Positions 17,403 to 60,605 of a DNA stretch of 64,000 nt are shown here, in pieces. The notes under the pieces were generated by a model. That model made no database searches, was not told the origin of the DNA, and saw nothing but the letters and a program-made list of their open reading frames with translations. Location: the IMG/VR virus record IMGVR_UViG_3300038417_000443. The stretch is one strand, 5' to 3'. Both the position numbers and the translations under genes were made by a program. This stretch comes from an uncultured virus (IMG/VR IMGVR_UViG_3300038417_000443). Taxonomy: Duplodnaviria; Heunggongvirae; Uroviricota; Caudoviricetes. Positions within the stretch are counted from its first letter, which is position 1. Each line of letters opens with the position of its first letter.

Positions 17403-17771
17403 TTAAACCATAAGACATTTTTTTATTTGAGCTTGTCTTCTCGGAGAAAGCAGTTGGTAAATAGTCATTAAAAAACCTCTCGCTCTTGATCCAGAAGAAA
17501 GCCATATAGAGCACCCACTTTTATGCGGAGGCGGAATGCTTCCTCCAAATAAAGATCTTAGTCTTTCCAGTATCCATCTGTCTTTTTGAGATACCAGCGC
17601 TTCTATCGATCTCCTCGAATAATGACAACTTCCCTCCCCCTCATAAATCCCAGCGGCCCAGTAAATATCTTTCATGGCTGGGTGAGCAGATGGACTTGAT
17701 CCGGGTTTTATTCTTCCCGTGTTTATTTTTGCAAGTTTTTTTAAATGATTTAATTGATTGATGGTTGACAC
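17403..17771 (-). CDS. Free-standing single-motif LAGLIDADG homing endonuclease
   Basis: WAAGIYEGEGS motif then VSQKD..IL.RL...FGG; likely GTG start at 17771. Confidence 0.8.
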   Translation of the reverse strand: MSTINQLNHLKKLAKINTGRIKPGSSPSAHPAMKDIYWAAGIYEGEGSCHYSRRSIEALVSQKDRWILERLRSLFGGSIPPPHKSGCSIWLSSGSRARGFLMTIYQLLSPRRQAQIKKCLMV

Positions 17772-17781
17772 TATTGTTCCC

Positions 17782-24368: not shown

Positions 24369-24828
24369 TTTTTCCCCCTAACTGTTCTATTTTCCACACT
24401 CCGTCATGTAAGGCTTGATGACAGTTTCGACACAAAAATATTAGTTTCACTGATAAAAACTTTTTTATAAAAGATTTCGGGATTAGCTTAAACCAATGAC
24501 ACAATAAATCTGCCTTATGACCCTTTTCCCTTGAATCAAGGTGATGCCCATCAATTGAACCGAAGCTCTCATTGTATCCACATCTTTTACAAGAAATTTT
24601 TTCTATGTTAAGATATTCTAATAGCCATTCTATATTTTTCTTTTTATTTCCAAGATGAAAACTGCTGGAGCGATCTTTCCAATACTCCCGATGACTTTCT
24701 CTATATTTTTTATTATATTCCCTATTTTTTTCAGCATTTTTTCTCTTCCACTCTTTTGATAAATTATTACATATTTCTTTATTATTTTCGTAATAATTAT
24801 GATTATACTCTTTTGTGTTTTTTGTCAT
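24361..24828 (-). CDS. HNH endonuclease
   Basis: CKRCG...DGHH...LCRNCHQALH. Confidence 0.75.
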   Translation of the reverse strand: MTKNTKEYNHNYYENNKEICNNLSKEWKRKNAEKNREYNKKYRESHREYWKDRSSSFHLGNKKKNIEWLLEYLNIEKISCKRCGYNESFGSIDGHHLDSREKGHKADLLCHWFKLIPKSFIKKFLSVKLIFLCRNCHQALHDGVWKIEQLGGKNE

Positions 24829-27308: not shown

Positions 27309-27783
27309 GGATATTCCTTCTATTATTCCTTTGTGTTTTTAGATCCGCCCACCTACAATTTAAAGGCTCATAATTCCCATCATTGTCTATTCTGTCTATG
27401 GTCATCCCAAGGGGTCTTTCTCCCATATCCCTAAGAAAATTTTTGAAGTTATTTTTCCACTCTTTGCAAACGACAATTCCCCTTCCTCCATAATTTTTAT
27501 AATCTTTATCTTTTGTATTATGACATCTTAATTTCATAGATCTCCACGATATATACGTACCCGATCCAGTTCTGCTATACCCGTGCGTTTTTCTCCTACA
27601 CCCACAGCTTTTTGTGTCCCCACTCTGCAAATATCCGGTAGGAAACAATACAATTTTTCCACACGAGCAAATACATTTCCAGACAACACTTTTGTTACCA
27701 TTTCTTCCCATCCTTTTGTCTGTTTTTAAAAGGACAGTTAATTGCCCAAATTGTTTTCCAATAAGATTTTTTGATGCGCTCAA
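27298..27783 (-). CDS. HNH-type homing endonuclease (YGGRGI family), copy 1
   Basis: [40 protein letters not shown]. Confidence 0.85.
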
Positions 27784-28921: not shown

Positions 28922-29277
28922 ACTCTAAAACATGTAAGATGCTGAGAACAATAGTGTTTGCCAATAATTCTTCATCTATGGAAAGAAATACACGTAAGTG
29001 GGCGATTTATGAGGATAAAAAGAAGAGGATGCTGGTTTGTCTGGACCCAAGACAGATTTACAAAACCATGAAAAAAGCATATAAATCGGCTCCTCCAACA
29101 GAAAAAGTATCCTTCAGAAAGGACATAAAAAAAGATGCAGAAAGAATTAAAAAAGAGTTTCCACGAGGCTCTGGAACGCTATCAACGAGACAACCATCTC
29201 TGCTCGGCAATATACTCCACATGCAACCGACTGGAGAGGGAGTTCGGGAACTTGGCTCTCAGCCAACTAATGCCTGA
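28918..29277 (+). CDS. Basic hypothetical protein
   Basis: ATGA-coupled to the upstream gene; Lys-rich; 3' end overlaps the integrase. Confidence 0.45.
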   Translation: MNSKTCKMLRTIVFANNSSSMERNTRKWAIYEDKKKRMLVCLDPRQIYKTMKKAYKSAPPTEKVSFRKDIKKDAERIKKEFPRGSGTLSTRQPSLLGNILHMQPTGEGVRELGSQPTNA

Positions 29278-29950
29278 TCGGGTAAATATATGGAAATCTA
29301 ATCGGCTTAAAGAAGCGGCCGCAGCCACGGTTGCAAGAGAGATTTTTGTGTTAAAGCATGTTTTTAAGCTGGCAGTGGAACAGTGGCAATGGATCGACCA
29401 TAATCCCATTAAGAACGTCTCCACGCCCCGTGTAAACAACGCTCGAACAAAGTGGCTCTCCCAGGGTGAGGAAGATGCCTTAATGCTCTCCTGCCCCCCT
29501 TGGCTCGCTAATGCGGTAGGGTTTACGATACAAACAGGGTTAAGAATGGGTGAGGTCATAGGTTTAAAATGGTCTGATCTGCATGAGGATTATATTTTAC
29601 TTGAGAAAACAAAAGAAAAAAGGCCGAGGGCGATTCCGCTGTCGCCAAAGGCCAAACAGATTATTGAATCGATTCCGAGGAACATTGAAAACATTTTTCT
29701 GGATGGAGAGAGAAGGCAAATTTCTACAAACCATCTTGAGTATAAATTTAAACAGGCCATCCAAAGGGCGGGTCTTCAAGATCTCCATTTCCATGATCTT
29801 CGCCATACGTTTGCCTCACGACTTGTTCAGCGAGGAGTAAATCTATTTCAGGTTCAAAATCTTCTTGGTCACAGTTCTCCGGTAATGACTCAACGGTATG
29901 CTCACTTGGATCTTCAGTCCCTAAAACTGGTTCTCGCTCAGACCGTATAA
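29135..29950 (+). CDS. int: Tyrosine recombinase/integrase
   Basis: TGLRMGE (R), KTK (K), HDLRH, LLGHS and TQRYAH (Y); core-binding plus catalytic domains. Confidence 0.92.
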   Translation: MQKELKKSFHEALERYQRDNHLCSAIYSTCNRLEREFGNLALSQLMPDRVNIWKSNRLKEAAAATVAREIFVLKHVFKLAVEQWQWIDHNPIKNVSTPRVNNARTKWLSQGEEDALMLSCPPWLANAVGFTIQTGLRMGEVIGLKWSDLHEDYILLEKTKEKRPRAIPLSPKAKQIIESIPRNIENIFLDGERRQISTNHLEYKFKQAIQRAGLQDLHFHDLRHTFASRLVQRGVNLFQVQNLLGHSSPVMTQRYAHLDLQSLKLVLAQTV

Positions 29951-40189: not shown

Positions 40190-40379
40190 GCTTGGAGGAA
40201 GACCTGAAAGAATCTATTGAAAAGATTAAGTTTGAAATCATAGAACAACGTGAAGAGATTCTCCGGGCCTTTATTGCAAAGTATGGGTGGCAGCCTGAGG
40301 ATTGTGAACAGGTGTTGGATATGTCGGATTACGCATCTGGCACGATTAGATGGTCTGTGAGAAAGAAGGGGGGTTAAGG

Positions 40380-40847
40380 GTGATAAATAATCTTAATTTA
40401 ACAGGGAAGAGGTTCGGGGCATGGAGGGTGTTATATCTTTTTCAGATTATAGGACAAGAAACATATTGGAGAGCCGTTTGCGATTGTGGTACAACTTCTA
40501 TTGTCTTGGGAAGTGCTTTAAAGAGCGGGGAAAATTTTGGATGTGGATGTCTGATAACAAGAAGGGGAAAGTCCGCGTGGAATAGAACCCGAATGACATG
40601 GATTGATATGATAAGAAGGTGTGAAGATCCTTATCGGAAGGATTATAAAAATTATGGTGGAAGGGGAATTAAGGTTTGTATTGATTGGCATTGTTTTGAT
40701 AATTTTTTAATAGACATGGGAGAACGTCCGGTTGGAATGACCATAGACAGAATAGATAATAATTTGGGATATTTTAAAGAAAACTGTAGATGGGCAACAC
40801 CAAGAGAACAGGCAAATAACCGAAGAAAGAAGGGAGGGGAAAAATGA
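40380..40847 (+). CDS. HNH-type homing endonuclease (YGGRGI family), copy 2
   Basis: [34 protein letters not shown] start. Confidence 0.85.
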
Positions 40848-42313: not shown

Positions 42314-42817
42314 GTGGACAGTAGGGTGAAGGATATCAGGGGGCAAAGATTTGGAAGATTAGTTGCGGTTTTTCCATCCCCCTTAAGGTATCGAAGGTCC
42401 GTGGTGTGGGCGTGCGAATGTGACTGTGGGGAGTATTTATTAATTAGGGAAAACTCATTATTTACAAACGGGGCAAGAAGCTGTGGTTGCCTTGATAGAG
42501 ATAGCAAAACAAAACATAATCATTGTCCCGCAGGAAACGAATCCCCAACCCATATGACATGGAGAGAAATGAAGTCGAGATGCTCAAACCCACGTCATAA
42601 AAGTTATAAGGACTATGGAGGGAGGGGTATTTCAGTTTGCAATGAATGGAAAAATGATTTTAGGAGTTTTTTAAGGGATATGGGGGAGAGACCTTTTAAT
42701 ATGAGTATCGATAGGATAGATAATAACGGAAACTATGAGTCCGGAAATTGTAGGTGGGCTGATTATATAACACAAAATAATAATAGGAGACCAAAAAAAT
42801 GGAACGTAAGCCAATAG
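42314..42817 (+). CDS. HNH-type homing endonuclease (YGGRGI family), copy 3
   Basis: WACECDCG, SCGC, YGGRGISVC..W, SIDRIDNNGNYE..NCRWA. Confidence 0.85.
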   Translation: MDSRVKDIRGQRFGRLVAVFPSPLRYRRSVVWACECDCGEYLLIRENSLFTNGARSCGCLDRDSKTKHNHCPAGNESPTHMTWREMKSRCSNPRHKSYKDYGGRGISVCNEWKNDFRSFLRDMGERPFNMSIDRIDNNGNYESGNCRWADYITQNNNRRPKKWNVSQ

Positions 42818-44669: not shown

Positions 44670-46229
44670 ATGGAATATTCTTATTCCGATGTACCCACGA
44701 TCAAAGCCTTTGCAAAGGACAGTACATTCATCCGAGCAATTACTGGTCCGTTTGGATCGGGCAAAAGCTCGGGATGCGATATAGAAATTTATCGTCGAGC
44801 AGTAGGGCAGGAGCCCAGTCCGGACGGAGTTAGAAAAACCCGGTTCGCCGCGGTGAGGAACAGCTACCCCCAGCTTCGTGATACAACGATTCCTACATTC
44901 ATGCATTGGTTGGGCCACATGGGGGAGTGGAAGGTTTCTGATCACGATTTCTTTTTAAATACTTCCGCTCCGGATGGAACCCCTGTTCAGTCTATTATTC
45001 ATTTCAGGCCCCTTGATAAACCCACCGATATTAAAAATCTTTTATCACTTGAAGTTACGGCGGCATATTTTAACGAGATAAAGGATATTCCTTTATCGAT
45101 TATCAACGCCATGAGGGGCAGGGTTGGTAGATTTCCCCCAAAGGATGTTGACAAAGGATTTATGGGTGCTTCATGGAAGGGGCTCTGGGGAGATACAAAC
45201 CCGCCAGATGTTGACCATTGGTTCTATAAATTATTTGAGGAAGATCGCCCCCATGCTTGTAAGGATTGTAGAACCCCAAAGAATCAAATGGTGCTTCTTC
45301 CGAGTAGAAATCCGGATAACAGTTTGATTCCAATGATGTCAAGGAAATGTCCTCAATGCAAACGTGGGATAGAGAATGCATTTCCGCTTACGAAGGTGTT
45401 TCATCAACCGTCTGGTCTTGGACCGGATGCAGAAAACATAGGAAACCTTCCTCAAGATTATTACCAAACTCTTGCGGCTGGAATGGACCAGGATTTCGTA
45501 AATGTTTTTTGCCATGGGTTATACGGATATGTTAAAGAGGGCAAACCTGTTTATGCAAACTATAATTCCGATTGGCATTATTCAAAAGAAGCGCTTAAGG
45601 CTCGTCCGAATTATCCTTTAATTATTTCCTTTGACAACACTGGCCTGACCCAAGCTTGCGTTATCTTGCAATACCTACCGAACGGTCAACTCCGTATTTT
45701 ACACGAATGGCTCGTTGAAGGAATAGGAACCAGAAGACTTACAAGAGATTTGGTCAGGCCTTTTACCTACTCGACCTATCCTGGTATCCAGATTTATCTA
45801 ACCGGTGATCCAGCCGGTGTAAAGAGGGCAGACACAGATGAAAGAAATACTTTTGAAGAAATCGCCGAGGCGTTTGGAATCCAAGCTACCCCGGCCAGAA
45901 GCAATTCTTGGCAATCTCGGTTTAACGCAGTGGATAGTTTTCTTGTTAAAAGAATCGGAAACAACGAACCGGGCCTTCTTGTATCCTCCGAGTGTAAAAT
46001 GCTTCACAGGGGGTTTATGGGGGAATATCGGATGCGTCGACTACAGGTTGTAAGTCAGGAGAAATTTGTTAATAGACCCGAGAAAAATCTTGTTGCTAAT
46101 GTGCATGATGCACTTCAGTATGGTTGTATGTTTGTGGAAGATATGCACGATCTTATGCGCAGAGATAGATTTGATCCAAGCGAACAAATAATTCAACAGG
46201 GCGCCGGTGATTGGAGCGCTTTTAGTTAA
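44670..46229 (+). CDS. terL: Terminase large subunit
   Basis: Walker A GPFGSGKS, RNSYPQL, Walker B-like YFNE, DTNPP; nuclease region GDPAG and HDALQY. Confidence 0.92.
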   Translation: MEYSYSDVPTIKAFAKDSTFIRAITGPFGSGKSSGCDIEIYRRAVGQEPSPDGVRKTRFAAVRNSYPQLRDTTIPTFMHWLGHMGEWKVSDHDFFLNTSAPDGTPVQSIIHFRPLDKPTDIKNLLSLEVTAAYFNEIKDIPLSIINAMRGRVGRFPPKDVDKGFMGASWKGLWGDTNPPDVDHWFYKLFEEDRPHACKDCRTPKNQMVLLPSRNPDNSLIPMMSRKCPQCKRGIENAFPLTKVFHQPSGLGPDAENIGNLPQDYYQTLAAGMDQDFVNVFCHGLYGYVKEGKPVYANYNSDWHYSKEALKARPNYPLIISFDNTGLTQACVILQYLPNGQLRILHEWLVEGIGTRRLTRDLVRPFTYSTYPGIQIYLTGDPAGVKRADTDERNTFEEIAEAFGIQATPARSNSWQSRFNAVDSFLVKRIGNNEPGLLVSSECKMLHRGFMGEYRMRRLQVVSQEKFVNRPEKNLVANVHDALQYGCMFVEDMHDLMRRDRFDPSEQIIQQGAGDWSAFS

Positions 46230-46240
46230 GGGGTAATACT

Positions 46241-48307
46241 ATGGTAATGGTAAGAACCCGAGAAGAGATAGTTGCCGAAGAAAAAGAAAAAGATAAGCGA
46301 GAAGCAACGGCTATCGGTGAAGCCTCCGAAGTTGATGAGCCCAAAGTCCTAAAGATAATAGAATTTTTGGATAAACGATGGGAACGAGCCCGTAGGGCGA
46401 AGGTAAATAATATTGAGCCCATAATTTTTAAAAATATTCGCCAGGCCCAAAGTAAGTATGAGCCCAAGAAATTGGCGGCTATCAGGGAAATGGGCGGATC
46501 CGATGTTTTTATTCAAATCACCGATACCAAATGCCGAAACATGATTACCTGGATTAGAGATATTGAATTTCAGTCTGGGGGTAAGCCTTGGGGTATTGAA
46601 CCAGAGCCAGTTCCAGAGCTTTCTAAAGAGTTAATGGATGAGATTAAGGGAATATTTGTTAAATCAACAATGGATCAGATTATGGGATCTGTCCCCCCAG
46701 GAGCACCACCTCCGGATATGAACAAGGTAATCCAAGAGGTGCAGGCCAGGATGCCACAACTGGAAGATGAAATGCAGGTGGCCGTTAGGGATAAGGCTGA
46801 GGAAAAATCTATTCAGATGACGAGAGAAATGGATACCATTCTTCGTAAGGGTGGATGGTATAATGCCCTAAACGATTGTATTCCAGATTTGGTTATAAAA
46901 AAGAATGCGTTTATTAAGGGACCAATAAAAAGGTATAAGGCTGTTAAAAAAATTATAAAGGATGAGGCGGGTAACAACAAGATAGATTATGTAAAGGAAG
47001 TGGTAAGGGAATGGGAAAGGGTTTCTCCTTTTGACTGTTATCCAGAACCTGATGTTAATTGGATAAGTGAGGGGTATCTATTCCACCACGTTGCATATAG
47101 AAGAAAATATCTTGCAGAGCTTATCGGAGTACCAGGATACCGAGAAGACGAGATCAGAGCCGTGCTCAAAGAGCATCTTGAGGGTGGGCTAAAAGAATGG
47201 ACGGGAATAGAGGGTCAGCGAGAAGAGGCCGAGAAAAAAGATACAACGGCAGTTTGGGAAAGCGACCGAATAGAGGGTCTTGATTATTATGGATCTGTTC
47301 AAGGGGAATATTTAATTGAATGGGGGGTTGAGGTTCCAGACCCAGACATTGACTATGAATGCACTATTTTTAAAATAGGAAAACATGTAATTGGTGCAAT
47401 AGTAAATCCAGACCCAGAAGGAAATAAACCTTGGTCGACGGCTTCGTTCGAGGATGAATCAGACAATATTTGGGGAAATGCGTACCCGGAAAAGATTGAA
47501 GACTGTCAGACCGTTTGTAACGCCTGCGCCCGCGCAGTAGTGAATAATATCGGAATGGGCTCTGGGCCACAGGTTGAAATTAATATAGACAGAATTCACG
47601 GTGGGCTTAAGGGGGACATGAGGTTAATACCATGGAAGAGGTGGTTAACTACAAACAAAATGATGCAGACTGGACAGGCAATAAACTTTTGGCAGCCCCA
47701 GATGCATGCACAGGAAATTCTTACTGTATACAGTGCGTTCTCGAAAATTGCGGACGAAAGGGGTATCCCGTCCTATGCTCATGGAGATCCCCAGGTGGGG
47801 GGTGGAGGAAACACTGCCTCTGGGCTCTCTATGTTAATCACCCAAGCGAGCCGGATCATCAAGGGTGTTATCAGAAATATGGATCGATTCCTTATCATCC
47901 CGTCGATTGAGAATACATACAACGATATGCTGATCGACCCTAAATACGTTAAGAAGATTGGGGATATAAATCTTGTGGCTAAGGGAAGTTCGGCCCTTAT
48001 CGAAAAGGAACAACGAGCGGTAAGGATGCTTGAGTTCTTGAACTCCACGAACAATGATATTGATCAGCAGATTACAGGTATCAAGGGTAGGGCATACTTG
48101 CTCGGTGAAGTTGCAAAATCCCATGAGATTGATCCGGAGAAGGCCCTTGCGGGGATGCTTAACCCTCAACCATCCCCGGGTGGAGGAGCTACTCCACCGG
48201 CTAAGGTTGGGGGTGGTGTAGATGAAGGGGGCAACAAGGTACAAGGACAATCTACTCAGTTGGTACATGGTGCCGGAGGACATCCGGCCTTACCAGAGAG
48301 GGGGTAA
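46241..48307 (+). CDS. Portal protein
   Basis: 688 aa directly after terL; RVSPFD.YP, SGPQVE, PWK.W and TASGLSML motifs of podophage portals. Confidence 0.85.
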   Translation: MVMVRTREEIVAEEKEKDKREATAIGEASEVDEPKVLKIIEFLDKRWERARRAKVNNIEPIIFKNIRQAQSKYEPKKLAAIREMGGSDVFIQITDTKCRNMITWIRDIEFQSGGKPWGIEPEPVPELSKELMDEIKGIFVKSTMDQIMGSVPPGAPPPDMNKVIQEVQARMPQLEDEMQVAVRDKAEEKSIQMTREMDTILRKGGWYNALNDCIPDLVIKKNAFIKGPIKRYKAVKKIIKDEAGNNKIDYVKEVVREWERVSPFDCYPEPDVNWISEGYLFHHVAYRRKYLAELIGVPGYREDEIRAVLKEHLEGGLKEWTGIEGQREEAEKKDTTAVWESDRIEGLDYYGSVQGEYLIEWGVEVPDPDIDYECTIFKIGKHVIGAIVNPDPEGNKPWSTASFEDESDNIWGNAYPEKIEDCQTVCNACARAVVNNIGMGSGPQVEINIDRIHGGLKGDMRLIPWKRWLTTNKMMQTGQAINFWQPQMHAQEILTVYSAFSKIADERGIPSYAHGDPQVGGGGNTASGLSMLITQASRIIKGVIRNMDRFLIIPSIENTYNDMLIDPKYVKKIGDINLVAKGSSALIEKEQRAVRMLEFLNSTNNDIDQQITGIKGRAYLLGEVAKSHEIDPEKALAGMLNPQPSPGGGATPPAKVGGGVDEGGNKVQGQSTQLVHGAGGHPALPERG

Positions 48308-48449: not shown

Positions 48450-49472
48450 ATGGAAGCGAATGGTGGACAAGTGAAGGTTGTAATTCTTTATAACCTTGAC
48501 GAACGGCTCATTAGTGGGGAATATGGAGAAGCTCTTGCTGAATTATCTCTCCAAGAAGAAATAGAGATCGTAGAAAAATCTCTTGAAAAACTGGGGTATC
48601 AATTTAGGACGATTGCAATTTCAAATTCAACTCCAATTTTGGCCGTAGCCAATTTAGTTTATAGTTTGAATCCAGATTGTGTTTTTAACCTGGTTGAAGC
48701 AATTAACGGTGATTCTCAAATGGAGATGGCGCTTCCCGCAATGCTTGATCTGATGAAAATTCCCTATACGGGATCGGGGGCATTGACATTAGGGCTTTGT
48801 CAGGATAAGGCAAGGAGTAAAGCAATCCTTAAGTGCGGTGGGGTTCAAACCCCTGAGTTTGAAGTTTATGGTTGGGATACCCCTCTATCAGACCATACCA
48901 TGTTTCCTTCCATCGTGAAACCCCTGCACGAAGATGGGAGTCTTGGAATTAATGCAAAAAGTGTAGTAAAAAATCACGTAGAGCTTGCTATCGCCGTTTA
49001 TAATATATTAAAAGAATATAGGCAAGAGGCTATTGTTGAGGAATATATTGAAGGAAGAGAATTCGGAATAGGTGTTATAGATTTCAATGGTGGTCCGGTT
49101 TCATTTCCCTGTTCTGAAATTTTATTTAACGGCTATCCACAGGGTACGCCGAAAATTGTTAGCTACAATGCAAAATGGAATCCAGAGACGATTGAGTATA
49201 AGGAAAGCATCCCCCATTGCCCAGCGGATATCGATAAAACATTATCAAGTCGATTACAGGCAATCGGATTAAAGGTTTTTAAGTTGTTTGAATGTCGAGG
49301 GTACATCAGGGTAGATGTTCGGGTAAGGGGAAACGATATATATGTAATTGACGTAAACTGTAATCCTGATATTTCACCTGGAAGTGGTGTCTGTACCGTG
49401 TTGAATGCCGCTGGAGTTCCCTACGAAGAGTTTGTTAAAAATTTAATAGAGGGGGCGTTGCGTGGCAAATAA
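48450..49472 (+). CDS. ATP-grasp ligase, D-Ala-D-Ala ligase-like
   Basis: IPYTGSG, DKARSK, IVKP.HEDGSLGI, EEYIEGREF, GYIRVDVR and IDVNCNP; start may be GTG 48471. Confidence 0.85.
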   Translation: MEANGGQVKVVILYNLDERLISGEYGEALAELSLQEEIEIVEKSLEKLGYQFRTIAISNSTPILAVANLVYSLNPDCVFNLVEAINGDSQMEMALPAMLDLMKIPYTGSGALTLGLCQDKARSKAILKCGGVQTPEFEVYGWDTPLSDHTMFPSIVKPLHEDGSLGINAKSVVKNHVELAIAVYNILKEYRQEAIVEEYIEGREFGIGVIDFNGGPVSFPCSEILFNGYPQGTPKIVSYNAKWNPETIEYKESIPHCPADIDKTLSSRLQAIGLKVFKLFECRGYIRVDVRVRGNDIYVIDVNCNPDISPGSGVCTVLNAAGVPYEEFVKNLIEGALRGK

Positions 49473-49848
49473 ACCCTTTGGATATTTGTTAACAGCCGAT
49501 TGTTATAAATGTGACCCCCACACACTCAATGATGTGAACATATGTTACAATTTTTTAGAGGAGGCTGTCAGGGCTTGTGGGGTATCGATGCAAGCGCCTC
49601 CGCTGGTGATAAGGACTCCAAGTGACTTTCCAGAAAAAGCGGGCCTGTCTGCTGTCGTGTTTTTAGTAGAGTCATCTATTGTTTGTCACACCCTATGTGT
49701 TAAGCAATTTTGCTCTGTAGTTTTTTATACTTGTAGCACAATAGATAGGGCAGCAAAAAAGAGATTGTTAAAACTGTGTCATCGATTTTTTAAGCCAGAG
49801 AAAATTGGATCACGTTTGATTAAAATCGGCACAGATTATTATGACTAA
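49462..49848 (+). CDS. S-adenosylmethionine decarboxylase-like proenzyme (SpeD class 1B fold)
   Basis: GLSAVVFLVE|SSIVCHT self-cleavage site and YTCS; the usual ESH reads ESS here. Confidence 0.75.
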   Translation: MANKPFGYLLTADCYKCDPHTLNDVNICYNFLEEAVRACGVSMQAPPLVIRTPSDFPEKAGLSAVVFLVESSIVCHTLCVKQFCSVVFYTCSTIDRAAKKRLLKLCHRFFKPEKIGSRLIKIGTDYYD

Positions 49849-50758: not shown

Positions 50759-51724
50759 ATGGGAACAGGAGTACCGGCTCAGGCCCTAAAGGCTGCCGAA
50801 GAAGCAGAAAGGCTTTATCAGGAACAGATCGATGTGTTGGCGGGCAATACTGGTTCTACTGGAGAAACGGGGGAAATAGAAGCTGAAGCAACCGGCCCGA
50901 CTGGAGAGGCCGAAGTGGTTTCCGAAGAAACCCCTGAACAGAAAGCCGAGAAGATACAACACAAATATGATGTACTTCGAGGTATGTACAATAAGGAGAT
51001 TCCCGAACTTTCCTTAAGGCTCGCTGAACAGTCTGGTCAGATTAAGTCCCTTACGGATCAAATTGCTGCATTAATTGCTGGTAAGAAACCAGACGAAACA
51101 AAAGAGGTCTTCGACTCGTTTGAGCAGGACCCCAATATCGGATATCTTAAGACAGAATATCCTGAAGTCTGGAAGGGGATCGAGGTTGCCCTTGTTAAAT
51201 TAAGGGATGAGACTTCTAAAAAGATCTCAGATCTTGGTTCTCAACTAACCGAGCAGAAGAAGCATACCGAAAAGACGGACAGGGATAGGTTCTATGATGA
51301 TGTTGAGTCAATGGAAAATTACGATGAAATTAATAAGTCCGTTGAATTCAATTCATGGTTAGACGAAACCGAGCCGCTTACCGGATTTAAAAGGAGAGAC
51401 ATCCTGAATGACGCCTATGCTTCATTGGACTCAACACGGGCAAAGAATTTCTTTTCTGAATTTACGGGGAAGAAGGTTGAGCCTGTCGTAGTTAAGCAAG
51501 TTGTAAAAAAAGAAGATACGGGTATATCGCCACGGACAACCGTGACTAAAACCGTAGTTGACAAAAGTGAACTAAAAGAAAATTTTATTAAAGCTTCCGA
51601 CGTTAAAAAGTTCTACGACGACGTGCAAAGAGGGAGATACAAGGGAAGAGACGCGGAGAAGGACAAGATAGAAGCCGAAATTAATAAGGCGATATCTGAT
51701 AAACGTGTTATTGCGGGACAGTAA
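50759..51724 (+). CDS. Capsid scaffolding protein
   Basis: Acidic coiled coil, KY.VL.GMYN.E motif; immediately precedes the capsid gene. Confidence 0.75.
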   Translation: MGTGVPAQALKAAEEAERLYQEQIDVLAGNTGSTGETGEIEAEATGPTGEAEVVSEETPEQKAEKIQHKYDVLRGMYNKEIPELSLRLAEQSGQIKSLTDQIAALIAGKKPDETKEVFDSFEQDPNIGYLKTEYPEVWKGIEVALVKLRDETSKKISDLGSQLTEQKKHTEKTDRDRFYDDVESMENYDEINKSVEFNSWLDETEPLTGFKRRDILNDAYASLDSTRAKNFFSEFTGKKVEPVVVKQVVKKEDTGISPRTTVTKTVVDKSELKENFIKASDVKKFYDDVQRGRYKGRDAEKDKIEAEINKAISDKRVIAGQ

Positions 51725-51752: not shown

Positions 51753-53310
51753 ATGACTTTTCCTTACGCTCCTGGGCATCCCGATTATTCGAGCACAGGG
51801 GTAGCGAAGTTTATACCTTAACACAATGGGGTATATAAAACTTCTCCTGAATAACTGGAACGGGATTTAATCCCCAACCAGAGGGAACAAGGAAAAATCC
51901 AACACCGCAGTTCGGAGGATTCCATGAAGCGATTAAGTTGGAAATACATAGCAGGTCTCGTTGATGGTGAAGGTTGTATAGATTTTCAATGTCACGTTGA
52001 CCACAAGACCGACAAGCCAAGGCTTTATCTTGTACCAAGATTAAGGATAGCCATGGCAGCCGTTGGGAAGGATCTTCTTGAATTGATAAAAATTCAGCTT
52101 GGTGGAAGCCTGTGGCTGAAAAACAGAAGCAAGAACCCAAATTGGCAAGACGCTTACTACTGGCAGGTTTCTGGTAAGCTTATGAGGCCGGTTCTACAAA
52201 ATATAGTTAATCACCTGGTATTGAAGCAAGAGCAGGCAAGGCTTTGCATCTGGTGGATAGATAGGTGTATGGGTAGACAGCTTAGTAAACTTAATGAAGT
52301 TGAGTCGATTAGGCAATGTGCCCGAGACGAATTAAAAGCTATGAAACTTGACCCGCAGAGACTAAGCGGAGAAGCCGTTAAGAAACTAACCCAGTTAATT
52401 AACGGATGCGATAGTCCAACCGAATGTTAATCGGCAGCAGGTATGGTCGTCCAAGACGATCGTTAAGTGGTATGAATATTGTTTTTTGAGCAGAATTTGT
52501 AACACCGATTATGAAGGTGAAATTAAGAACCAGGGTGACTCGGTTATAATCCGATCAGTGCCCGATACCACTGTCGTGGATCATGCTATAGGTCAGACAG
52601 TGACATATGAACGCCCCGTGTCAACAGCGATGACCCTTCTTATCGACAAAGGTAAGAGATGGGCTATCGAGCTTGATGACATCGTGGCGGCTCAGACAGA
52701 TCTCCCATTGCTGACAAAGTTTACTGACGATGCGGCAATGCAGTTGAAGATCAGTATTGAGTATTCTTTTCTGCAAGACTCAACCATCTATAGTGGGATG
52801 GGCGCCTACATGACAGGGGCAACAGCCGGTCTTAAGACTGGGTTGTTTGACCTCGGTGGGGCAACTGTAGCTCTTGCCAAGACCCTAACCCCTACCAACG
52901 TCCTTGATTATATCATCGATGCAGGTACGGTGTTGGATGAAGCTCTTGTTCCAGAAGTGGGTAGATGGATGATGATTCCTCCTTGGGTTGCTGGCATGAT
53001 CAAGAAGTCAGACCTCAAGGATGCTTCTCTTACAGGTGATCCTAAATCTCCTATAAGAAATGGCCTCATCGGTTCTATCGACAGATTTGAACTTTATTCA
53101 AGCAATCTGCTCTATAGTCCAGTTGCCACGGTATACCAGATTCTGTTTGGGGTTCCGCAGGCAATTACGATGGCTACTCAGATTGTTAAAACTCAACATA
53201 TTCCTACTCCTTCCGACGCATTTGCGGAAAGAGTTCGTATGCTTCAGGTTTACGGCTATAAGGTCATTAAGCCCAATGCATACGGTTGCATCTATGCAAT
53301 CAAGGGATAA
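51753..53310 (+). CDS. Major capsid protein, spliced: exon 1 51753-51818, exon 2 52438-53310 (312 aa)
   Basis: Joined product MTFPYAPGHPDYSSTGVAKFIP|QVWSSK...NTDYEGEI..QGDSV.IR restores the FIPxxWS coat-protein motif; SD GGAG before 51753. Confidence 0.88.
51819..52437 (+). mobile_element. Group I intron in the major capsid gene
   Basis: Exon ends in U paired to G in P1 (TATACCT/GGGTATA); P3 CTTCTCC/GGAGAAG; P7 GACTA/TAGTC; P8 CCGTTAA/TTAACGG; P9 CCGA/TCGG; terminal G at 52437. Confidence 0.9.
51924..52430 (+). CDS. Intron-encoded LAGLIDADG homing endonuclease
   Basis: YIAGLVDGEGCI motif, GG....W, L.LKQEQA; SD GGAGG. Confidence 0.9.
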   Translation: MKRLSWKYIAGLVDGEGCIDFQCHVDHKTDKPRLYLVPRLRIAMAAVGKDLLELIKIQLGGSLWLKNRSKNPNWQDAYYWQVSGKLMRPVLQNIVNHLVLKQEQARLCIWWIDRCMGRQLSKLNEVESIRQCARDELKAMKLDPQRLSGEAVKKLTQLINGCDSPTEC

Positions 53311-53323
53311 GATTTAGAAACTT

Positions 53324-53396
53324 GAGGTAGCGCGTGTCGAAGGGTTAGGCGAAAGCCGAGGTCGCGCTGAAAAGGATAGGGGTGCTATCCTACTTC
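53324..53396 (+). ncRNA. Candidate structured RNA between the capsid gene and the tRNA
   Basis: AGCGCG/CGCGCT, GGC-GAAA-GCC and AGGATAG/CTATCCT stems; alternative closing pair GAGGTAG/CTACTTC. Confidence 0.4.
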
Positions 53397-53405
53397 ATTT
53401 TATTT

Positions 53406-53480
53406 GCCCATGTAGCTCAGGGGGAGAGCGCCTGCCTTACACGCAGGGGGGCGGTGGTTCAAATCCATCCGTGGGCACCA
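53406..53480 (+). tRNA. tRNA-Val (TAC)
   Basis: GCCCATG/CGTGGGC acceptor, GCTC/GAGC D stem, CCTGC-CTTACAC-GCAGG anticodon arm, TTCAAAT T loop, encoded CCA. Confidence 0.93.
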
Positions 53481-54908: not shown

Positions 54909-55766
54909 ATGAACTGGAGAGTTGTGTCGCCTGATTGGTGTGTCTTTGGGAAAAGAATTGCCTCAATGCTTGGTGTTGAATGTTCTGATAAGGCCGAGGG
55001 TGCAGGGGCTGCAATCTTTATAGAAATGTTTCCCGGCATGATTGAGGAGGCGCTTCGATATAAAAATACCCCCAAGATATGCTGGTGGACAGGAACGGAT
55101 GTCAGGGTGTATTTAGAAAATAAAGAAACCTATGATTTTGGGAATTCCGCCCACGTTACAGATACGCCTTGGCTCATCTATCAACTAAGCAAAAAGGTTA
55201 ACCCCGTTTGTTTCCTACCAATGCCGTGTTCACTAAATAGTGACGCGCCACCTCCTTATCCAAAAGACCCATCAATTTTACTCTATCTATCCGACCATCA
55301 AGCAAGGGATATCCCTCGCTCGATTGAGTTTATTAAGCATAATCAGTGGTGTCCTATTTTTGTGGTAAGCGGGTTAGGGGTCCGTTTGCCAAAAGCTCTT
55401 GACGGATTTTCTCAATCAAATGTAAATTTGATAGGACAGGCCACCTATGGAATGATGGTTCATATTTTTGAGAAAACTTCCATCTATGTCCGTTTCATGC
55501 ATTTTGATGGGATGAGTCAGCTTGTTGTGGAATCAAAGTGTCTTGGGAGGCATGTTGCGTCCACGGTTATGACCCCATACTGTGAATTAATTGAACCAGA
55601 TTTTAGCCAAGCGGAGATTTCTGAGGGGATTAAAAATCTAATAAAAGATCCTCCAGACGAAGCTGGAAGAGAATGGTATAGAGCTCTTTTTAATTTCAAA
55701 ACATTTGGAAGAATAGTGGGGGAGATTTGTAATGAGAAAAAATGGGAAGTACCAAAGGGGCTATAA
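54909..55766 (+). CDS. Putative GT-B-fold glycosyltransferase (divergent)
   Basis: WWTGTDV; C-terminal IYVRFMHFDGMSQLVVESKCLGRHV resembles the GT4 E/D-G-x-x-x-x-x-E motif. Confidence 0.5.
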   Translation: MNWRVVSPDWCVFGKRIASMLGVECSDKAEGAGAAIFIEMFPGMIEEALRYKNTPKICWWTGTDVRVYLENKETYDFGNSAHVTDTPWLIYQLSKKVNPVCFLPMPCSLNSDAPPPYPKDPSILLYLSDHQARDIPRSIEFIKHNQWCPIFVVSGLGVRLPKALDGFSQSNVNLIGQATYGMMVHIFEKTSIYVRFMHFDGMSQLVVESKCLGRHVASTVMTPYCELIEPDFSQAEISEGIKNLIKDPPDEAGREWYRALFNFKTFGRIVGEICNEKKWEVPKGL

Positions 55767-56274
55767 GAAATGTTGTGAAAGAGGAATATGTGCGGTTATC
55801 CATCCCAGTGTAAAAATTGGTAAGGGGGTTCGTTTCGGGCATTGCGTTGTAATAGAAGAAAATTGTGTAGTTGGGGATAATACTTTTATTGCAAACTTCG
55901 TGGTATTGAGACCGAATACCATTATCGGAAAAGATTGTGTAATAGGCCATTTTTGCGTTCTTGAAATGGGTGTAAGGTTGGAAGATGGGGTTCATATCAT
56001 GCCCCAGTGTCACATTACAATGGGGATGGCAATTGAGCAGGGGGCATTTATCGGACCTGGTGTTATTGCCATGAATGATAAAAAAATAGATAGGAACTGG
56101 ACTCCTCCGATAGTCCGAAACCATGCCAAGGTAGGGGCGGCGGCGGTAATATTACCCGGAGTTGAAATTGGAGAGGGGGCTTTTATTGGCGCTGGTTCTG
56201 TGGTAACTAAAGATGTTGCTCCAGGGAGTACGGTAATAGGATCTCCCGCAAGGAGTGGAAAAGTAATTACATAA
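55732..56274 (+). CDS. Hexapeptide-repeat (LbetaH) acyltransferase
   Basis: Repeated [IV]G hexapeptides; GAFIGPGV..MND; GAGSVVTKDV. Confidence 0.88.
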   Translation: MRKNGKYQRGYKKCCERGICAVIHPSVKIGKGVRFGHCVVIEENCVVGDNTFIANFVVLRPNTIIGKDCVIGHFCVLEMGVRLEDGVHIMPQCHITMGMAIEQGAFIGPGVIAMNDKKIDRNWTPPIVRNHAKVGAAAVILPGVEIGEGAFIGAGSVVTKDVAPGSTVIGSPARSGKVIT

Positions 56275-56285
56275 AGGAGGGGGAT

Positions 56286-57221
56286 ATGTCAAGGATATTA
56301 GTCACGGGTGGTGCCGGGTTTATCGGATCGAATTTAACAGAGGGTTTACTAAAAAGAGGGCATTCGGTTAGGGTACTCGATAATTTTTCAACAGGAAAAA
56401 TGAGTAACTTGGTATTTGATAAAGAATATCCCCTGGAGATTATAAAAGGGGATATCAGAAGCCTCCCAATATGTAAAAAAACATCTGAAGGAATGGATTA
56501 TGTGTTTCACTTAGCAGCCATTCCTTCTGTCCAATTGTCCGTAGAAGATCCAGGGCCTTCAAATGCGGTAAATTCAGGGGGTACCTTTAACGTTCTGCTT
56601 GCCGCGAAAGAGAAGGGGGTGAAGAGAGTTATCTTTGCAGACTCTTCTGCTGTTTACGGGGATACATCAATTTTGCCGACACACGAAGATCTTCCCCCGC
56701 ATCCACTTTCTCCATATGCTTTACAAAAATATACTGGGGAACAGTATTGTAAACTTTTTTATAAGTTGTATGAACTCGAAACTGTTTCTTTAAAATATTT
56801 TAATATATTTGGACCGAAGCAAGACCCGAATTCAGAATACTCTGCTGTTATCCCTAAGTTTATAGACGCCCTTCTTAATGGAAGGCCTCCAGTTGTTTTT
56901 GGGGACGGAGAACAGTCAAGGGATTTTACTTATATTGAAAATGTGGTACATGCAAACATCCTCGCTATGGAAGCAACCTTTCTTTACGGAATGGTACTTA
57001 ATGTTGCATGTGGAAGAAGATTTTCCCTTAACCAATTACTGGTTGTCTTAAAAAGAATTATTGGGTCTGAAATACAGCCAGTCTATTCGGGACCACGACC
57101 AGGGGAGGTAAGGCACTCTTTGGCGGACATAAGTAAGGCAAGGGGTGTACTGGGGTATGAGCCGACAGTGGATTTTGAAGCTGGGTTGAAAAAGACAGTT
57201 GAGTTTATGAGGGGAACTTGA
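56286..57221 (+). CDS. NAD-dependent UDP-sugar epimerase (WbpP/TviC-like)
   Basis: TGGAGFIGS, FHLAA, SPYALQK, YFNIFGPKQDP, GDGEQSRDFTY. Confidence 0.92.
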   Translation: MSRILVTGGAGFIGSNLTEGLLKRGHSVRVLDNFSTGKMSNLVFDKEYPLEIIKGDIRSLPICKKTSEGMDYVFHLAAIPSVQLSVEDPGPSNAVNSGGTFNVLLAAKEKGVKRVIFADSSAVYGDTSILPTHEDLPPHPLSPYALQKYTGEQYCKLFYKLYELETVSLKYFNIFGPKQDPNSEYSAVIPKFIDALLNGRPPVVFGDGEQSRDFTYIENVVHANILAMEATFLYGMVLNVACGRRFSLNQLLVVLKRIIGSEIQPVYSGPRPGEVRHSLADISKARGVLGYEPTVDFEAGLKKTVEFMRGT

Positions 57222-57421
57222 AAATAGAAATAAGTAAGGAAGAACTTATTTGCCTACTGTTTTGGTATTATGCTTTTAGCGACAACGTGGAATACCAGGA
57301 TATCGATAGGAAATTGTTTGAGAGGCTCTGGGCCATTTTAAGTCTTTACAAAGAGATTCCGTTAAAAGATTTTGGAATCTCTGGGGCACCGAGATACGAG
57401 CCGGGGGAGGGACCGAGATGA
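57218..57421 (+). CDS. Hypothetical protein
   Basis: Coupled between the epimerase and GT genes. Confidence 0.4.
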   Translation: MKIEISKEELICLLFWYYAFSDNVEYQDIDRKLFERLWAILSLYKEIPLKDFGISGAPRYEPGEGPR

Positions 57422-59079
57422 GTAATCCGCTTGTTTCCATTATTATTGGAAACTATAACAAGGGAAGGTGGCTGACCGAGGCTCTTTTTTCTGCCTTTGG
57501 TCAAACATATTCTCCAATAGAAGTTGTTTTATACGACGATGGATCTACGGATCAGTCGCCGATTATTTGTAGCGCTTTTTCGGGAGTACCGAATTTTGTA
57601 TATTCAAGAGGGAAAGAGTGTTCTGGACGGTGTTCGGTATCCTATGCCAGGGCGTTGGCTTTAGCTAAAGGTGAGTATGTGGCGTTTTTGGGGTCGGATG
57701 ATATTTTAACTCCTTACCATGTTGCCGACTTAATGGAAGAGGCAATCAAAGACCCTAAAATAGATTTCTTGTACAGCAATCTTCTTTATATAGATGAGAA
57801 TAATAAGATAATTGGAGGGCCATTTTCACCGCAGGAAGATACTATTTTTGATAAGTGTTCTATAGGGCTTGTAACCTCCATTGTAAAGCGCAGCATTTTA
57901 ATGGATGTCGGGGGGTTTGATGAAGCCCTTACATTTAGTGAAGACTGGGAATTAATAATAAAATTATTTAGAGCAGGGGCGGTAAGAAAGTATGTTGATG
58001 TGGCAGGATTTTTAGGGAGAAGAACGACTGGGGAGGCCACGATGTCGAAGGTGGCCGGATCGATACTCCCGAACTTTTCCGATAAAAGAAGAATTGAATC
58101 CCATACGTATATTAGAAAAAAGCATAATCTCCCAGGCCCATGTAGGTGCGGGTGCGGGGTTGGAGAAATTATGCTTCCACCGATAGAAGGAGATCCAAGA
58201 ATATCGGCATCAATGATTGTTAGGGATGAGGAAACGGTTCTTGAAGAATGTCTCAGGTCGATTATTGGAATTGATGAAATAGTAATCTTGGATACAGGCT
58301 CTACGGATGGAACCTCCGATATTGCCAGAAAATATACTGATAAATACATATTTGGAGAATATGCGTGGAGTGATAATTTTGCAGAGGCAAGGAATGAATC
58401 CTTAAAGAGATGTACTGGAGATTGGGTATTAATTATTGATGCGGATGAATATCTTGAAGAGGGTGGAATCCGAAAAATAAGAGCTCTTATAAAAACGATT
58501 CCTGCAAACGTTTCTGCAATAGGATTTAAAACGATAGCTAAGAACGGAAACCTGATGCACGAGTCCGTCAGGCTGTTTAGGAACAACATTGGGGTTCAGT
58601 GGCACGGCCCGGTTCATAATTATTTAAGTGTGAGATCCCAATACTCCTCTGACATTTCTCTTTATTACGGGTATTCTCCCGCCCATGCAAAAGATCCGGA
58701 TAGGGCGTTTAGAATATTGAGTAAAGAGATTGAAAAAACTCCCGGAGCTCTTCGGGAGAGATTTTACCTGGCAAGGGAGTATTACTACAGGCAGAAATGG
58801 GAAGAAGCGATTGAGCATTACAGGATATATCTTGAAAAGGCTCATTGGCCCCCAGAGAAGGCTGAGGCCTGGATGCAGGTATCCAGGTGTTACAATAATG
58901 TGGGAATGAATTTTGAGGCACGTCTTGCTTGTCTAAGAGCTCTTGAAATAAACGCAGACTTTAAGGATGCGTTGAATTGGATGGGGGCCTTGTCCCAAGA
59001 TCCAGAGGTAAGGAAGAAGTGGGAAGCATACGCCACTCTTGCCGGAAATAGCAACACCTTATTTTGTTCCACAAGATAG
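57418..59079 (+). CDS. Double GT2 glycosyltransferase with C-terminal TPR repeats
   Basis: First GT-A domain (DDGSTD, FLGSDD, SEDWEL); second GT-A domain (MIVRDEE, DTGSTD, FAEARN, IDADE); TPR (FYLAREY...A...Y). Confidence 0.9.
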   Translation: MSNPLVSIIIGNYNKGRWLTEALFSAFGQTYSPIEVVLYDDGSTDQSPIICSAFSGVPNFVYSRGKECSGRCSVSYARALALAKGEYVAFLGSDDILTPYHVADLMEEAIKDPKIDFLYSNLLYIDENNKIIGGPFSPQEDTIFDKCSIGLVTSIVKRSILMDVGGFDEALTFSEDWELIIKLFRAGAVRKYVDVAGFLGRRTTGEATMSKVAGSILPNFSDKRRIESHTYIRKKHNLPGPCRCGCGVGEIMLPPIEGDPRISASMIVRDEETVLEECLRSIIGIDEIVILDTGSTDGTSDIARKYTDKYIFGEYAWSDNFAEARNESLKRCTGDWVLIIDADEYLEEGGIRKIRALIKTIPANVSAIGFKTIAKNGNLMHESVRLFRNNIGVQWHGPVHNYLSVRSQYSSDISLYYGYSPAHAKDPDRAFRILSKEIEKTPGALRERFYLAREYYYRQKWEEAIEHYRIYLEKAHWPPEKAEAWMQVSRCYNNVGMNFEARLACLRALEINADFKDALNWMGALSQDPEVRKKWEAYATLAGNSNTLFCSTR

Positions 59080-59097
59080 GGTATAAGGAGGGGGAAA

Positions 59098-59778
59098 ATG
59101 AAGATTATTACTGGCGCGTCGAGGGGGATAGGGAGATATCTTTTAGAGAAATATCTCGTTCCGGGAGAGGTCGTTTGTGGTACATTTTTTACCACGGAGC
59201 CGCCTCGATATCTTTCTAAATATTACTCTAAGGTAGACGTTTCAAATTATATAGAAACTGACAATTGGATAAGCTCTATTATGCTTACAGAAAAAATAGA
59301 ACTTATCAATTGTGCGGCAACAAATTATAACTCTTTTGCACATAAGGCAAACCCCTATGACTGGGGAGAAATAATAAGGGTAAATCTACTTGGTACGTTT
59401 CACGTTATTCTCGCCCTGCTTCCAGAAATGCGGAAGAATAATTACGGAAGAATAATTAATTTTTCTTCCATCGTTGATCGATTAGGAATCCCGGGCACGA
59501 GCGCCTACGCGGCATCCAAGGCTGGACTTCTTGGATTGACGCGGGTGCTGGCGGCAGAAAACGCCTCAAAGGGAATAACGGTTAATAATTTAAATCTTGG
59601 TTATTTTAAAATAGGAATGGGGTGCGAACTTCCCCCAGAACTGGGAAACGAAATTAAAAAAAGAATTCCAGTTAGTGAATTCGGTGATCCAGAAACCATC
59701 TATAATGCAGTTAATTTTTTGATTAATAATAGTTACGTTAACGGGGCAAGCCTCGATATTAACGGGGGCTTGCGATGA
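59098..59778 (+). CDS. Short-chain dehydrogenase/reductase (FabG-like)
   Basis: TGASRGIG, GRIINFSS, YAASK, INGG. Confidence 0.9.
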   Translation: MKIITGASRGIGRYLLEKYLVPGEVVCGTFFTTEPPRYLSKYYSKVDVSNYIETDNWISSIMLTEKIELINCAATNYNSFAHKANPYDWGEIIRVNLLGTFHVILALLPEMRKNNYGRIINFSSIVDRLGIPGTSAYAASKAGLLGLTRVLAAENASKGITVNNLNLGYFKIGMGCELPPELGNEIKKRIPVSEFGDPETIYNAVNFLINNSYVNGASLDINGGLR

Positions 59779-60605
59779 TAAAAGTAGACAGAACAAATAA
59801 TATTAGCATAGAGGCGGCTTCGATTGAAATTGGAAAAAATGTGCATTTTGGAAGGAACATTTCCATTCTGCTAAGAGGGAAATTTAGCATTGGGGATTAT
59901 AGCCACCTTGGAGACGACGTAAATATCGGGGGAAACAACGTAAGGATAGGAAGGCATTTATTCCACGATGAGGGATTAAGGGTCGGTGGGGGTGGTCACC
60001 AGAACCCAACTGCAAACCTAACCATCGGTGATAGGTGTACGCTTCACGACAATATTATAAATATATATGAGCCGATTGAAATCGGTAACGATGTAGGGCT
60101 TTCTAACGAAGTCACGCTTCTTACACACGGATATTGGCTCTCTGTTTTAGAAGGATATCCGGCTTCATTTTCTGGAATTAAAATCGGTAACGGTGTGATT
60201 ATAGGCTACAGAAGCCTGGTAATGATGGGGGTTGAGATAGCCGACAACTGCGTGATAGGGGCTCAAAGCGTAGTTACAAAAAGTCTTAGAAAAAAGGGCA
60301 TCTACGCTGGATCTCCGGTAAAACTTATTAGAGAAATTACCCCCATGTCTTACGGAGAAAAAACCTTGGTGTTGGATAAAATCATTGAGGGATATTATCC
60401 GATAGCCGCACACCATGGAGTTTCCCCTTGGATTTGTGCTTCTTATCCAAATGTTTATATTAATGGTCTTATGTTTAATGTGGAAACATTTAGGTATTCA
60501 GGGGTAGAGGACGAAGAAACTGACGATTTCCGAGATTACATGCGGAAGTGGGGAATAAGAATTTATACGGAAAGACCGTTTAGGAGTAAATATGTTTGTC
60601 AGTGA
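59775..60605 (+). CDS. Hexapeptide-repeat acyltransferase
   Basis: IG repeats, LLTHG, GAQSVVTKS, YAGSP. Confidence 0.85.
   Translation: MIKVDRTNNISIEAASIEIGKNVHFGRNISILLRGKFSIGDYSHLGDDVNIGGNNVRIGRHLFHDEGLRVGGGGHQNPTANLTIGDRCTLHDNIINIYEPIEIGNDVGLSNEVTLLTHGYWLSVLEGYPASFSGIKIGNGVIIGYRSLVMMGVEIADNCVIGAQSVVTKSLRKKGIYAGSPVKLIREITPMSYGEKTLVLDKIIEGYYPIAAHHGVSPWICASYPNVYINGLMFNVETFRYSGVEDEETDDFRDYMRKWGIRIYTERPFRSKYVCQ

Follow-up and report, generated by a model that had tools for sequence, protein, structure and literature searches.

The window analysed here, 64,000 nucleotides from a contig of about 64,300, is nearly the whole genome (roughly 64 kb) of a tailed phage and carries genes for a terminase (44670-46229), a portal-like protein (46241-48307) and an integrase (29135-29950), together with a scaffold-like ORF (50759-51724), a tRNA-Val and tail-region genes. 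The major capsid gene, on the plus strand, is in two pieces. Exon 1 (51753-51818), with a GGAG upstream of its ATG, has 22 codons and ends in F-I-P, the Pro codon being CCT; a TAA codon follows directly and is the first codon of a 619-nt intron (51819-52437) whose last base is G. Exon 2 (52438-53310) comprises 290 codons and a stop. Upon removal of the intron in silico, a frame of 939 nt is obtained with a single stop at its end, encoding 312 amino acids and reading FIP-QVWSSK across the junction, and the restoration of the host reading frame is characteristic of a group I intron. A sequence-only reading of this DNA had claimed both the stop after 22 residues and the restored junction, and intronless relatives, which read FIP-QLW or FIP-EIW at this point, agree with it.

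Exon 2 matches the phrog_267 major head protein (E 1.1e-37), and a family capsid profile matches the major capsid protein of PDB 8e16 (E 1.8e-32), a solved capsid that starts with the same N-terminal motif; NCBIfam has no family for exon 2. It is the sole copy, as no second capsid copy was found in the 64-kb window. Exon 1 shares 18 of its 22 residues with intronless relative L016, 19 with L017 and 14 with L019, and the match to these three genes confirms the intron boundaries at both ends. At the level of sequence, a single major capsid gene split by a 619-nt group I intron with its own homing endonuclease ORF is thus confirmed. It is scarcely credible that no splicing takes place, with the capsid protein beginning in exon 2 or ribosomes bypassing the insert. 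Although a 274-aa ORF does begin at a TTG at 52486, no Shine-Dalgarno sequence precedes it, a start there loses 38 N-terminal residues conserved in relatives, the exon 2 frame contains no ATG, GTG or TTG within the intron, and the entire group I core, described below, is under compensatory selection.

Other features of the window were recorded alongside. A structured RNA and a terminator-like stem lie past the capsid stop, followed by tRNA-Val(TAC) within the structural gene block (53312-53480). Between portal and scaffold are a D-Ala-D-Ala ligase-like ATP-grasp gene and an AdoMet decarboxylase (48450-49848), and a sugar-modification cluster of epimerase, glycosyltransferase, reductase and acyltransferase-like ORFs comes after the capsid gene (54909-60605). 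A second short LAGLIDADG-like ORF, apparently free-standing, sits on the minus strand behind a nuclease-like gene (17403-17897; phrog_5046, E 4e-10 over residues 75-162). Another four ORFs have matches to HNH endonuclease families (24361-24828, 27298-27783, 40350-40847 and 42314-42817); no group I core of the capsid-intron family was found near them, nor a second intron of that family anywhere in the 64-kb window.

The intron RNA, all on the plus strand, can be folded into a complete group I core whose 5' half spans 51841-51891 and whose 3' half spans 52347-52437. P1 (51810-51837) pairs the exon strand 51810-51818 with the guide 51829-51837 and contains the U.G pair U51818.G51829, the U being the last base of the CCT codon and the 5' splice-site base. 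P10 joins 51827-51828 to the first bases of exon 2. P3 (51841-51847 with 52368-52374), P4 (51855-51858 with 51878-51881) and P5 (51862-51866 with 51870-51874) are followed by the 5' strands of P6 (51883-51885) and P6a (51888-51891), whose 3' strands occupy 52347-52354, ahead of J6/7. P7 (52358-52364 with 52412-52417) holds the guanosine site G52360-C52416, and P8 (52375-52381 with 52399-52405), P9 (52420-52423 with 52431-52434) and the terminal G at 52437 complete the structure. The sequence-only reading had listed P1 with its U-G pair, P3, P7, P8, P9 and the terminal G; every one of these is present, as are P4, P5, P6, P6a and P10.

We counted pairing on an alignment of 77 introns, from which the structure had in part been derived: across the 49 proposed pairs of P1, P10, P3, P4, P6/P6a, the hairpin at the endonuclease start, P7, P8 and P9, 97.7% of 3765 cells are paired, versus 38.7-41.5% when partners are slid by 1-3 columns. 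Changes on both sides occur in 30 of the 49 pairs, including pairs in P1, P3, P6a, P7, P8, P9 and P10. Four of the five measures were reached by none of 500 shuffles and the fifth by three. When every pair of columns was scanned, P3, P8, P9, P1 and P6a came out on top. Pairing of the proposed core is far beyond chance. By helix, the paired cells amount to 99.8% in P3, 100% in P7, 99.7% in P4, 97.9% in P6/P6a, 100% in P8 and 89.0% in P9. The P1 U.G is kept in 76 of 76 aligned rows, with one gap, and its flanking pairs covary; the -4 pair, for example, is CG in 63, GC in 6, UA in 6 and AU in 1. The guanosine-binding pair G52360-C52416 is kept in 77/77, the first P7 pair varies (CG 41, AU 17, GC 16, UA 3), and the bulged base of P7 is A in 57 introns and C in 20.

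Two checks are independent of this helix model. The Pro codon at the junction is CCT in 91/91 site-1 introns among the matches listed (the classifier script required the T of CCT, and exceptions, which would have been flagged, did not occur) versus 7/52 intronless genes. Opposite a C at the start of exon 2 the guide base is G (6/6 introns), and opposite a G it is U in 65 introns (n=77); counted as pairs, the first position of P10 is UG in 65, GC in 6 and CG in 1, with 5 unpaired (n=77). The latter result bears on the exact 3' splice site. The junction reads CAG-CAG, and since G52434, G52437 and G52440 would all preserve the frame, splicing could be displaced by one codon, to G52434 or G52440, giving one Gln more or less. 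We consider this very unlikely: intronless genes have exactly one residue class between the P and the hydrophobic-W pair, G52434 is base-paired in P9, and the P10 covariation is consistent with G52437, so that the guide-base match and the pairing of G52434 together favour G52437 over the two other in-frame positions.

The P3-P7 pseudoknot core, the P4-P5-P6 domain, P8, P9 and the terminal G with P10 are the features that define a group I intron. In its periphery the intron lacks P2, P7.1 and P7.2 and has a short P5, features that bear on subgroups IA, IB4 and IC; introns without P2 are typically IC2, IA1 or IB4, according to the text consulted of PMC1995217. P4 is unusual in having four Watson-Crick pairs followed by A.A in 72/77 and A.G in 77/77, versus six pairs in the Rfam consensus and in the intron of locus L003. 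The covariance-model check proposed in the sequence-only reading failed to recover the intron: Rfam RF00028 (Intron_gpI, threshold 50 bits) gave no group I match in the window even at E<=10, none in L175 or L103, and 17 bits for the 3' half of L243. The same model missed the ORF-bearing capsid introns of L003 and L005 and gave 49.6 bits for a second intron in L101, which argues that it is insensitive to cores split by an ORF. We regard the element as a real and well-supported group I intron of a known kind with an unusual P4. Covariation supports the core structure itself; guanosine-dependent splicing would follow from the class.

The intron carries an ORF (51924-52430, plus strand) for a protein of 168 aa that begins in L6 and stops in the P9 loop. 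It matches PF00961 with 24.7 bits (cut-off 23.1), in line with the LAGLIDADG assignment of the sequence-only reading; NCBIfam has no family for it. The PHROG label 'HNH endonuclease' (phrog_5046) was rejected in favour of LAGLIDADG, on which Pfam, the PDB profile search and the fold agree. An AlphaFold model (pLDDT 84.7) has its best Foldseek match in I-CvuI (E 7.5e-08, TM 0.61), with I-CreI also matched, and shows a LAGLIDADG helix with the catalytic acidic residue E16 and an alpha-beta-beta-alpha-beta-beta-alpha fold. Prediction as a homodimer scored 0.69 versus 0.19 for the best control, with at least 91% contact agreement between runs and pLDDT of at least 80; this mark was reached by 20/30 solved homodimers and 1/23 single chains, and the score may reflect likeness to solved I-CreI-type dimers. 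The modelling supports an I-CreI-like, single-motif LAGLIDADG homodimer. Compared with I-CreI and I-CvuI (PDB 5a74, 1g9y), the modelled protein shares the single motif and the fold and is predicted to dimerize through the motif helix, but is about 20% identical and has C-terminal helices encoded by the ribozyme core.

In I-CreI-type enzymes the Gln after the second strand, Q47 in I-CreI, has a catalytic role; the equivalent residue in this family is A, T, S or V. G15-E16 and K101 are kept in the window's copy, and K101 is invariant in 36 homologs. The catalytic G-E motif is present in 74/77 ORFs, none of which is shorter than 147 aa. Fifteen of the 77 endonucleases have a C-terminal zinc-finger-like tail, CxxC...H...GxCxxC, encoded in the P8 loop (L098, L106, L107, L110, L115, L116, L184, L198, L202, L203, L215, L220, L222, L224 and L238). 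The intronless junction of the window's phage (51812-51818 plus 52438-52443) forms a palindrome of 13 bases with the first base of exon 2 at its centre, which suits a homodimeric cutter; the junctions of relatives are less symmetric.

That the endonuclease ORF runs through the catalytic core had also been claimed, and the overlap is larger than was claimed: in the window's copy it amounts to 84 nt, from the 3' strand of P6a through P6, P7, P3 and P8 into the P9 loop. Among the 77 introns, the ORF stops before the 3' strand of P7 in 28, within it in 19, in the P9 region in 26 and in exon 2 in 1, with 3 not placed. A near-invariant C-terminal protein motif, M-K-x-D-P-Q/H-R-L, is encoded by P6a, P6, J6/7 and P7; its variable residue tracks the pairing of P6a, and residues 141-144 lie within the predicted dimer interface. 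Since the last 28 codons of the endonuclease are also the core, a ribosome reading them would have to unfold the ribozyme.

A hairpin in L6 (51906-51931, plus strand) covers both a Shine-Dalgarno sequence (51914-51918) and the start codon of the endonuclease. In the family alignment its outer helix, between L6 and the first three codons, is 98.1% paired, and its inner stem, variable in sequence with a Shine-Dalgarno-like motif, has at least 3 bp in 72/77 (mean 4.0 versus 2.4 in shuffled sequences). The hairpin is not unusually stable in the window's copy (z -0.4 to +0.3; family mean z -0.5), and the pairing probability of the UG within the AUG exceeds 0.5 in just 34/77. We have moderate confidence in a start-codon hairpin that appears conserved in the family and weak in the window's copy. 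A promoter scan found 5 sites versus 6.2 expected, none within the intron, which leaves an internal promoter unsupported. A pairing of the L6 strand with a look-alike sequence at the 3' end of the ORF was also considered; it is one among many pairings of conserved columns, shows no compensatory changes and is not claimed. We infer, on sound grounds, that translation of the endonuclease would compete with splicing, as the sequence-only reading proposed: T4 td offers a precedent in the sections seen of PMC3073962, and the conserved start hairpin fits.

To place the intron among relatives, we searched with the ORF and with the RNA motif. Homologs of the ORF numbered 280 at E<=1e-3 among 316 candidates, and a family profile built from 36 homologs matched 137 loci in viral, 120 in metagenomic and 2 in genomic sequences; 80, 80 and 2 of them were listed. 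Two of these (L095, L096), identical to the window, were left out, and the other 160 listed loci reduce to 109 distinct ones including the window's own (L175). Site 1 was defined as lying after the Pro codon of F/Y/L-x-P and before E/Q-x-W/Y. By script, 91 of the 109 distinct loci listed are at site 1, 9 are shifted and 9 are other, mostly contig ends; we quote the script's counts throughout, although it mislabelled L099 and L269, both site 1 by eye. Inspection by eye placed one 'shifted' locus at site 1 and the remaining eight 7 or 10 bases further on, and found, among the flanks listed, a capsid exon on whichever side is present in the 9 unclassified loci. The site-1 introns are 571-777 nt long and fall, among the matches listed, into 77 groups at 90% identity. 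They occur in capsid proteins as little as 13-30% identical to one another.

A search with the RNA motif alone found at least 120 viral stretches, 80 of them listed and 65 distinct; 38 of the 65 are at site 1, 10 are shifted and 17 are other. By eye, ten of these 17 are capsid contexts, some at other sites with different LAGLIDADG ORFs, and the other seven look like chance matches. Across 185,579 prokaryote genomes, the family profile found only 2 loci, both in capsid genes. These two (L255, L256) lie on short contigs of metagenome-assembled genomes titled Steroidobacteraceae and Smithella, titles that may give a weak hint of the hosts. Among cultured phages (50,697 records), there was no DNA match to the intron and there were 25 weak protein matches to the endonuclease, 27-33% identical and in methylase or free-standing contexts.

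The N-terminal end of the capsid is a hotspot for introns. Those with the same endonuclease family are found at three positions no more than 10 bases from the capsid motif, directly behind the Pro codon or one base into the Trp or Ser codon (L119, L139, L158, L167, L168 and L228; L130, L154 and L335). In L130 (1883-3400) two abutting introns surround a micro-exon of 3 bases in the capsid gene: a family intron splits the Trp codon behind its first base and is followed by the three exon bases and by a second intron with a two-motif LAGLIDADG ORF, and taking both introns out restores ...E-I-W-S-D-E. The P1 of the second intron seems to need the first to be gone, which suggests ordered splicing. 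A different intron lies at the window's exact site in L003 (1807-2500), with a six-pair P4, a variant P7 and an unrelated-looking ORF; its P1 loop is almost identical to that of family member L187. Exon 2 shows an early break in 8/77 family loci, and further introns were seen in the first 35 codons of capsid exon 2 (L005, L101, L102, L115, L123, L180, L191, L194 and L217). The same 5' ribozyme motif also occurs about 120 codons into the capsid gene, at W-S/A-D-D (L257, L261, L262, L272 and L301), with ORFs that are mostly longer LAGLIDADG proteins of about 300-335 aa.

Presence of the intron was mapped on a capsid tree with 103 rows: L003, 45 intronless genes and, from the 77 intron-bearing ones, the 57 with an exon 2 of at least 150 aa. 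This was a quick search with long branches, in which intron-bearing and intronless genes had been gathered by different queries. The tree needs 17 gains or losses, at least 9 of them forced by well-supported branches, versus 34 for shuffled labels, so that the trait is clustered but patchy. The five nearest relatives of the window's capsid protein in the tree set (57-68% identical) comprise four intronless genes and L003 with its different intron at the same site, and the four nearest endonucleases (65-73%) sit in capsids only 42-49% identical. Loci L120 and L176 have exon 2 proteins that are 99% identical and endonucleases that are 47% identical. Identities of endonuclease and capsid are positively correlated (Spearman 0.54 over 1596 non-independent pairs), which argues that much of the inheritance is vertical; the patchy occupancy of the capsid tree points to homing. 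The window's intron looks mosaic by sequence comparison, with P1 and P9 closest to L194 (90% and 77%), L6 closest to L177/L179 (90% and 88%) and the ORF closest to L177-L180 (71-72%). Convergence on exons that start with Gln could be a partial explanation of this pattern.

The distribution and the protein features together bear on what the ORF does today. The intron might splice while its ORF has ceased to work as an endonuclease and persists either as a maturase or as a passenger that the overlap with the core holds in place. The lack of Gln at the Q47-equivalent position, the constraint of RNA pairing on the C-terminal codons, altered catalytic motifs in 3/77 relatives and the existence of LAGLIDADG maturases (in the portion consulted of PMC3073962) are all in keeping with such a loss, yet the window's copy retains G15-E16 and K101, all 77 ORFs are full length and the patchy distribution implies recent movement; on balance we think it quite unlikely. 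Somewhat less improbable, though still rather unlikely, is interference competition, by which the endonuclease would cut the capsid gene of co-infecting intronless relatives and selection on the phage would maintain the intron. What is targeted is a motif both essential and conserved, common to distant capsids, and such competition is described for phage PhiPA3 in the available text of PMC11878797 and, to judge by its listing, in PMC11620839, but plain homing accounts for the distribution equally well. This explanation is compatible with that of a homing intron.

We favour, as highly probable, a mobile group I intron that is spliced and that encodes a homodimeric homing endonuclease with damped translation, and our confidence is higher for the intron than for current activity of the endonuclease. 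The capsid transcript would fold into the group I core and bind free guanosine at G52360-C52416 in P7; the guanosine would cut after U51818, and exon 1 would be joined to exon 2 after G52437 to give the 312-aa capsid protein, while unspliced RNA would yield a 22-aa peptide. The ribosome-binding site of the endonuclease in L6 would be held in the hairpin, keeping translation low and allowing splicing to win, by analogy to T4 td. The I-CreI-like homodimer, as modelled, would presumably cut at the conserved FIP-E/Q-x-W codons of capsid alleles that lack the intron, either in a mixed infection or in a prophage, after which repair would copy the intron in, a movement that the patchy tree supports.

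Every ingredient of this arrangement has precedent. Phage group I introns are usually described in genes of nucleotide metabolism and replication. The rarity of capsid introns implied by the sequence-only reading was nonetheless overstated, given mycobacteriophage LittleE (PMC3706429) and the crAss-like phages (PMC7886860), as far as the consulted parts of these papers describe them. LittleE also has an intron in its major capsid gene, with U before it, G at its end and a LAGLIDADG-like (I-CreI-related) ORF, and its splicing was shown by RT-PCR and N-terminal sequencing (PMC3706429, Pope et al. 2013); it differs in being 819 bp long with the ORF on the opposite strand, an orientation that avoids conflict of ribosome and ribozyme on one RNA, and its class is left unclear in the text consulted. 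LittleE is absent from the 25 cultured-phage protein matches to the endonuclease. A capsid intron of Tuc2009 is cited in the same text (PMC3706429). Group I introns are reported to be typical of capsid genes in the Delta group of crAss-like phages, and one Zeta capsid gene is in five fragments; these introns were found by protein domains, with sites and RNA structure not given in the text consulted, and the likeness is one of description only (PMC7886860, Yutin et al. 2021).

Nor is the layout of the ORF new, since one running from P6 to P9 is already published (PMC1995217). According to the accessible text of that paper, Synechococcus sp. C9 L1917 has a single-motif LAGLIDADG ORF running from P6 into P7, P3 and P8 with its stop in P9, and no P2; it lies, however, in a bacterial 23S rRNA gene, is 743 nt long and has a complex, IC1-like P5 region (Haugen et al. 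2007), whereas the window's intron lies in a phage mRNA and has a short P5 and a short P4. In T4 td the I-TevI ORF is likewise in the P6 loop, its 3' end overlaps P6a and P7, and a hairpin covers its ribosome-binding site, but the enzyme is GIY-YIG, the gene is that of thymidylate synthase and the overlap is 20 nt versus 84 nt here (sections consulted of PMC3073962, Edgell et al. 2011). ORFs overlapping intron cores are reviewed in PMC3984707, in the part available. LAGLIDADG ORFs are rare in phage introns, with 1 intron-encoded ORF in the Bastillevirinae table of PMC11878797, again in its available part. The accessible text of PMC11878797, PMC12350094, PMC12880540, PMC11835236 and PMC10580990 holds no capsid family of the same kind. 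The capsid-site family was not found in the literature searched, which takes in few subscription journals, and the supplements of PMC7886860 or the database of PMC11835236 could hold members.

The novelty lies in the family as such, with its single capsid target and short P4, and no new type of mechanism is involved. A further reading, which we put forward tentatively and hold to be possible though doubtful, is that these introns form a distinct, uncatalogued group I subclass, short in P4 and invisible to Rfam, that is specialised on phage capsid genes. Its endonucleases would target one N-terminal capsid motif conserved across very distant phages; modules would be swapped between introns, P1/P9 coming from one lineage and L6 with the ORF from another; and the start hairpin would act as a switch between ribosome and ribozyme, giving up capsid output in exchange for homing or for attacks on rival phages.

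In these genomes, the capsid protein comes out of gene callers truncated and the intron escapes Rfam, and capsid-based phage surveys are affected as a result. The family may also be a source of compact homing endonucleases directed at a new target. With at least 77 introns more than 10% apart in sequence, all at a single capsid site, this one family provides a natural series for how 84 nt can be ribozyme and protein code at once and for how a very abundant mRNA is spliced despite an embedded ORF.
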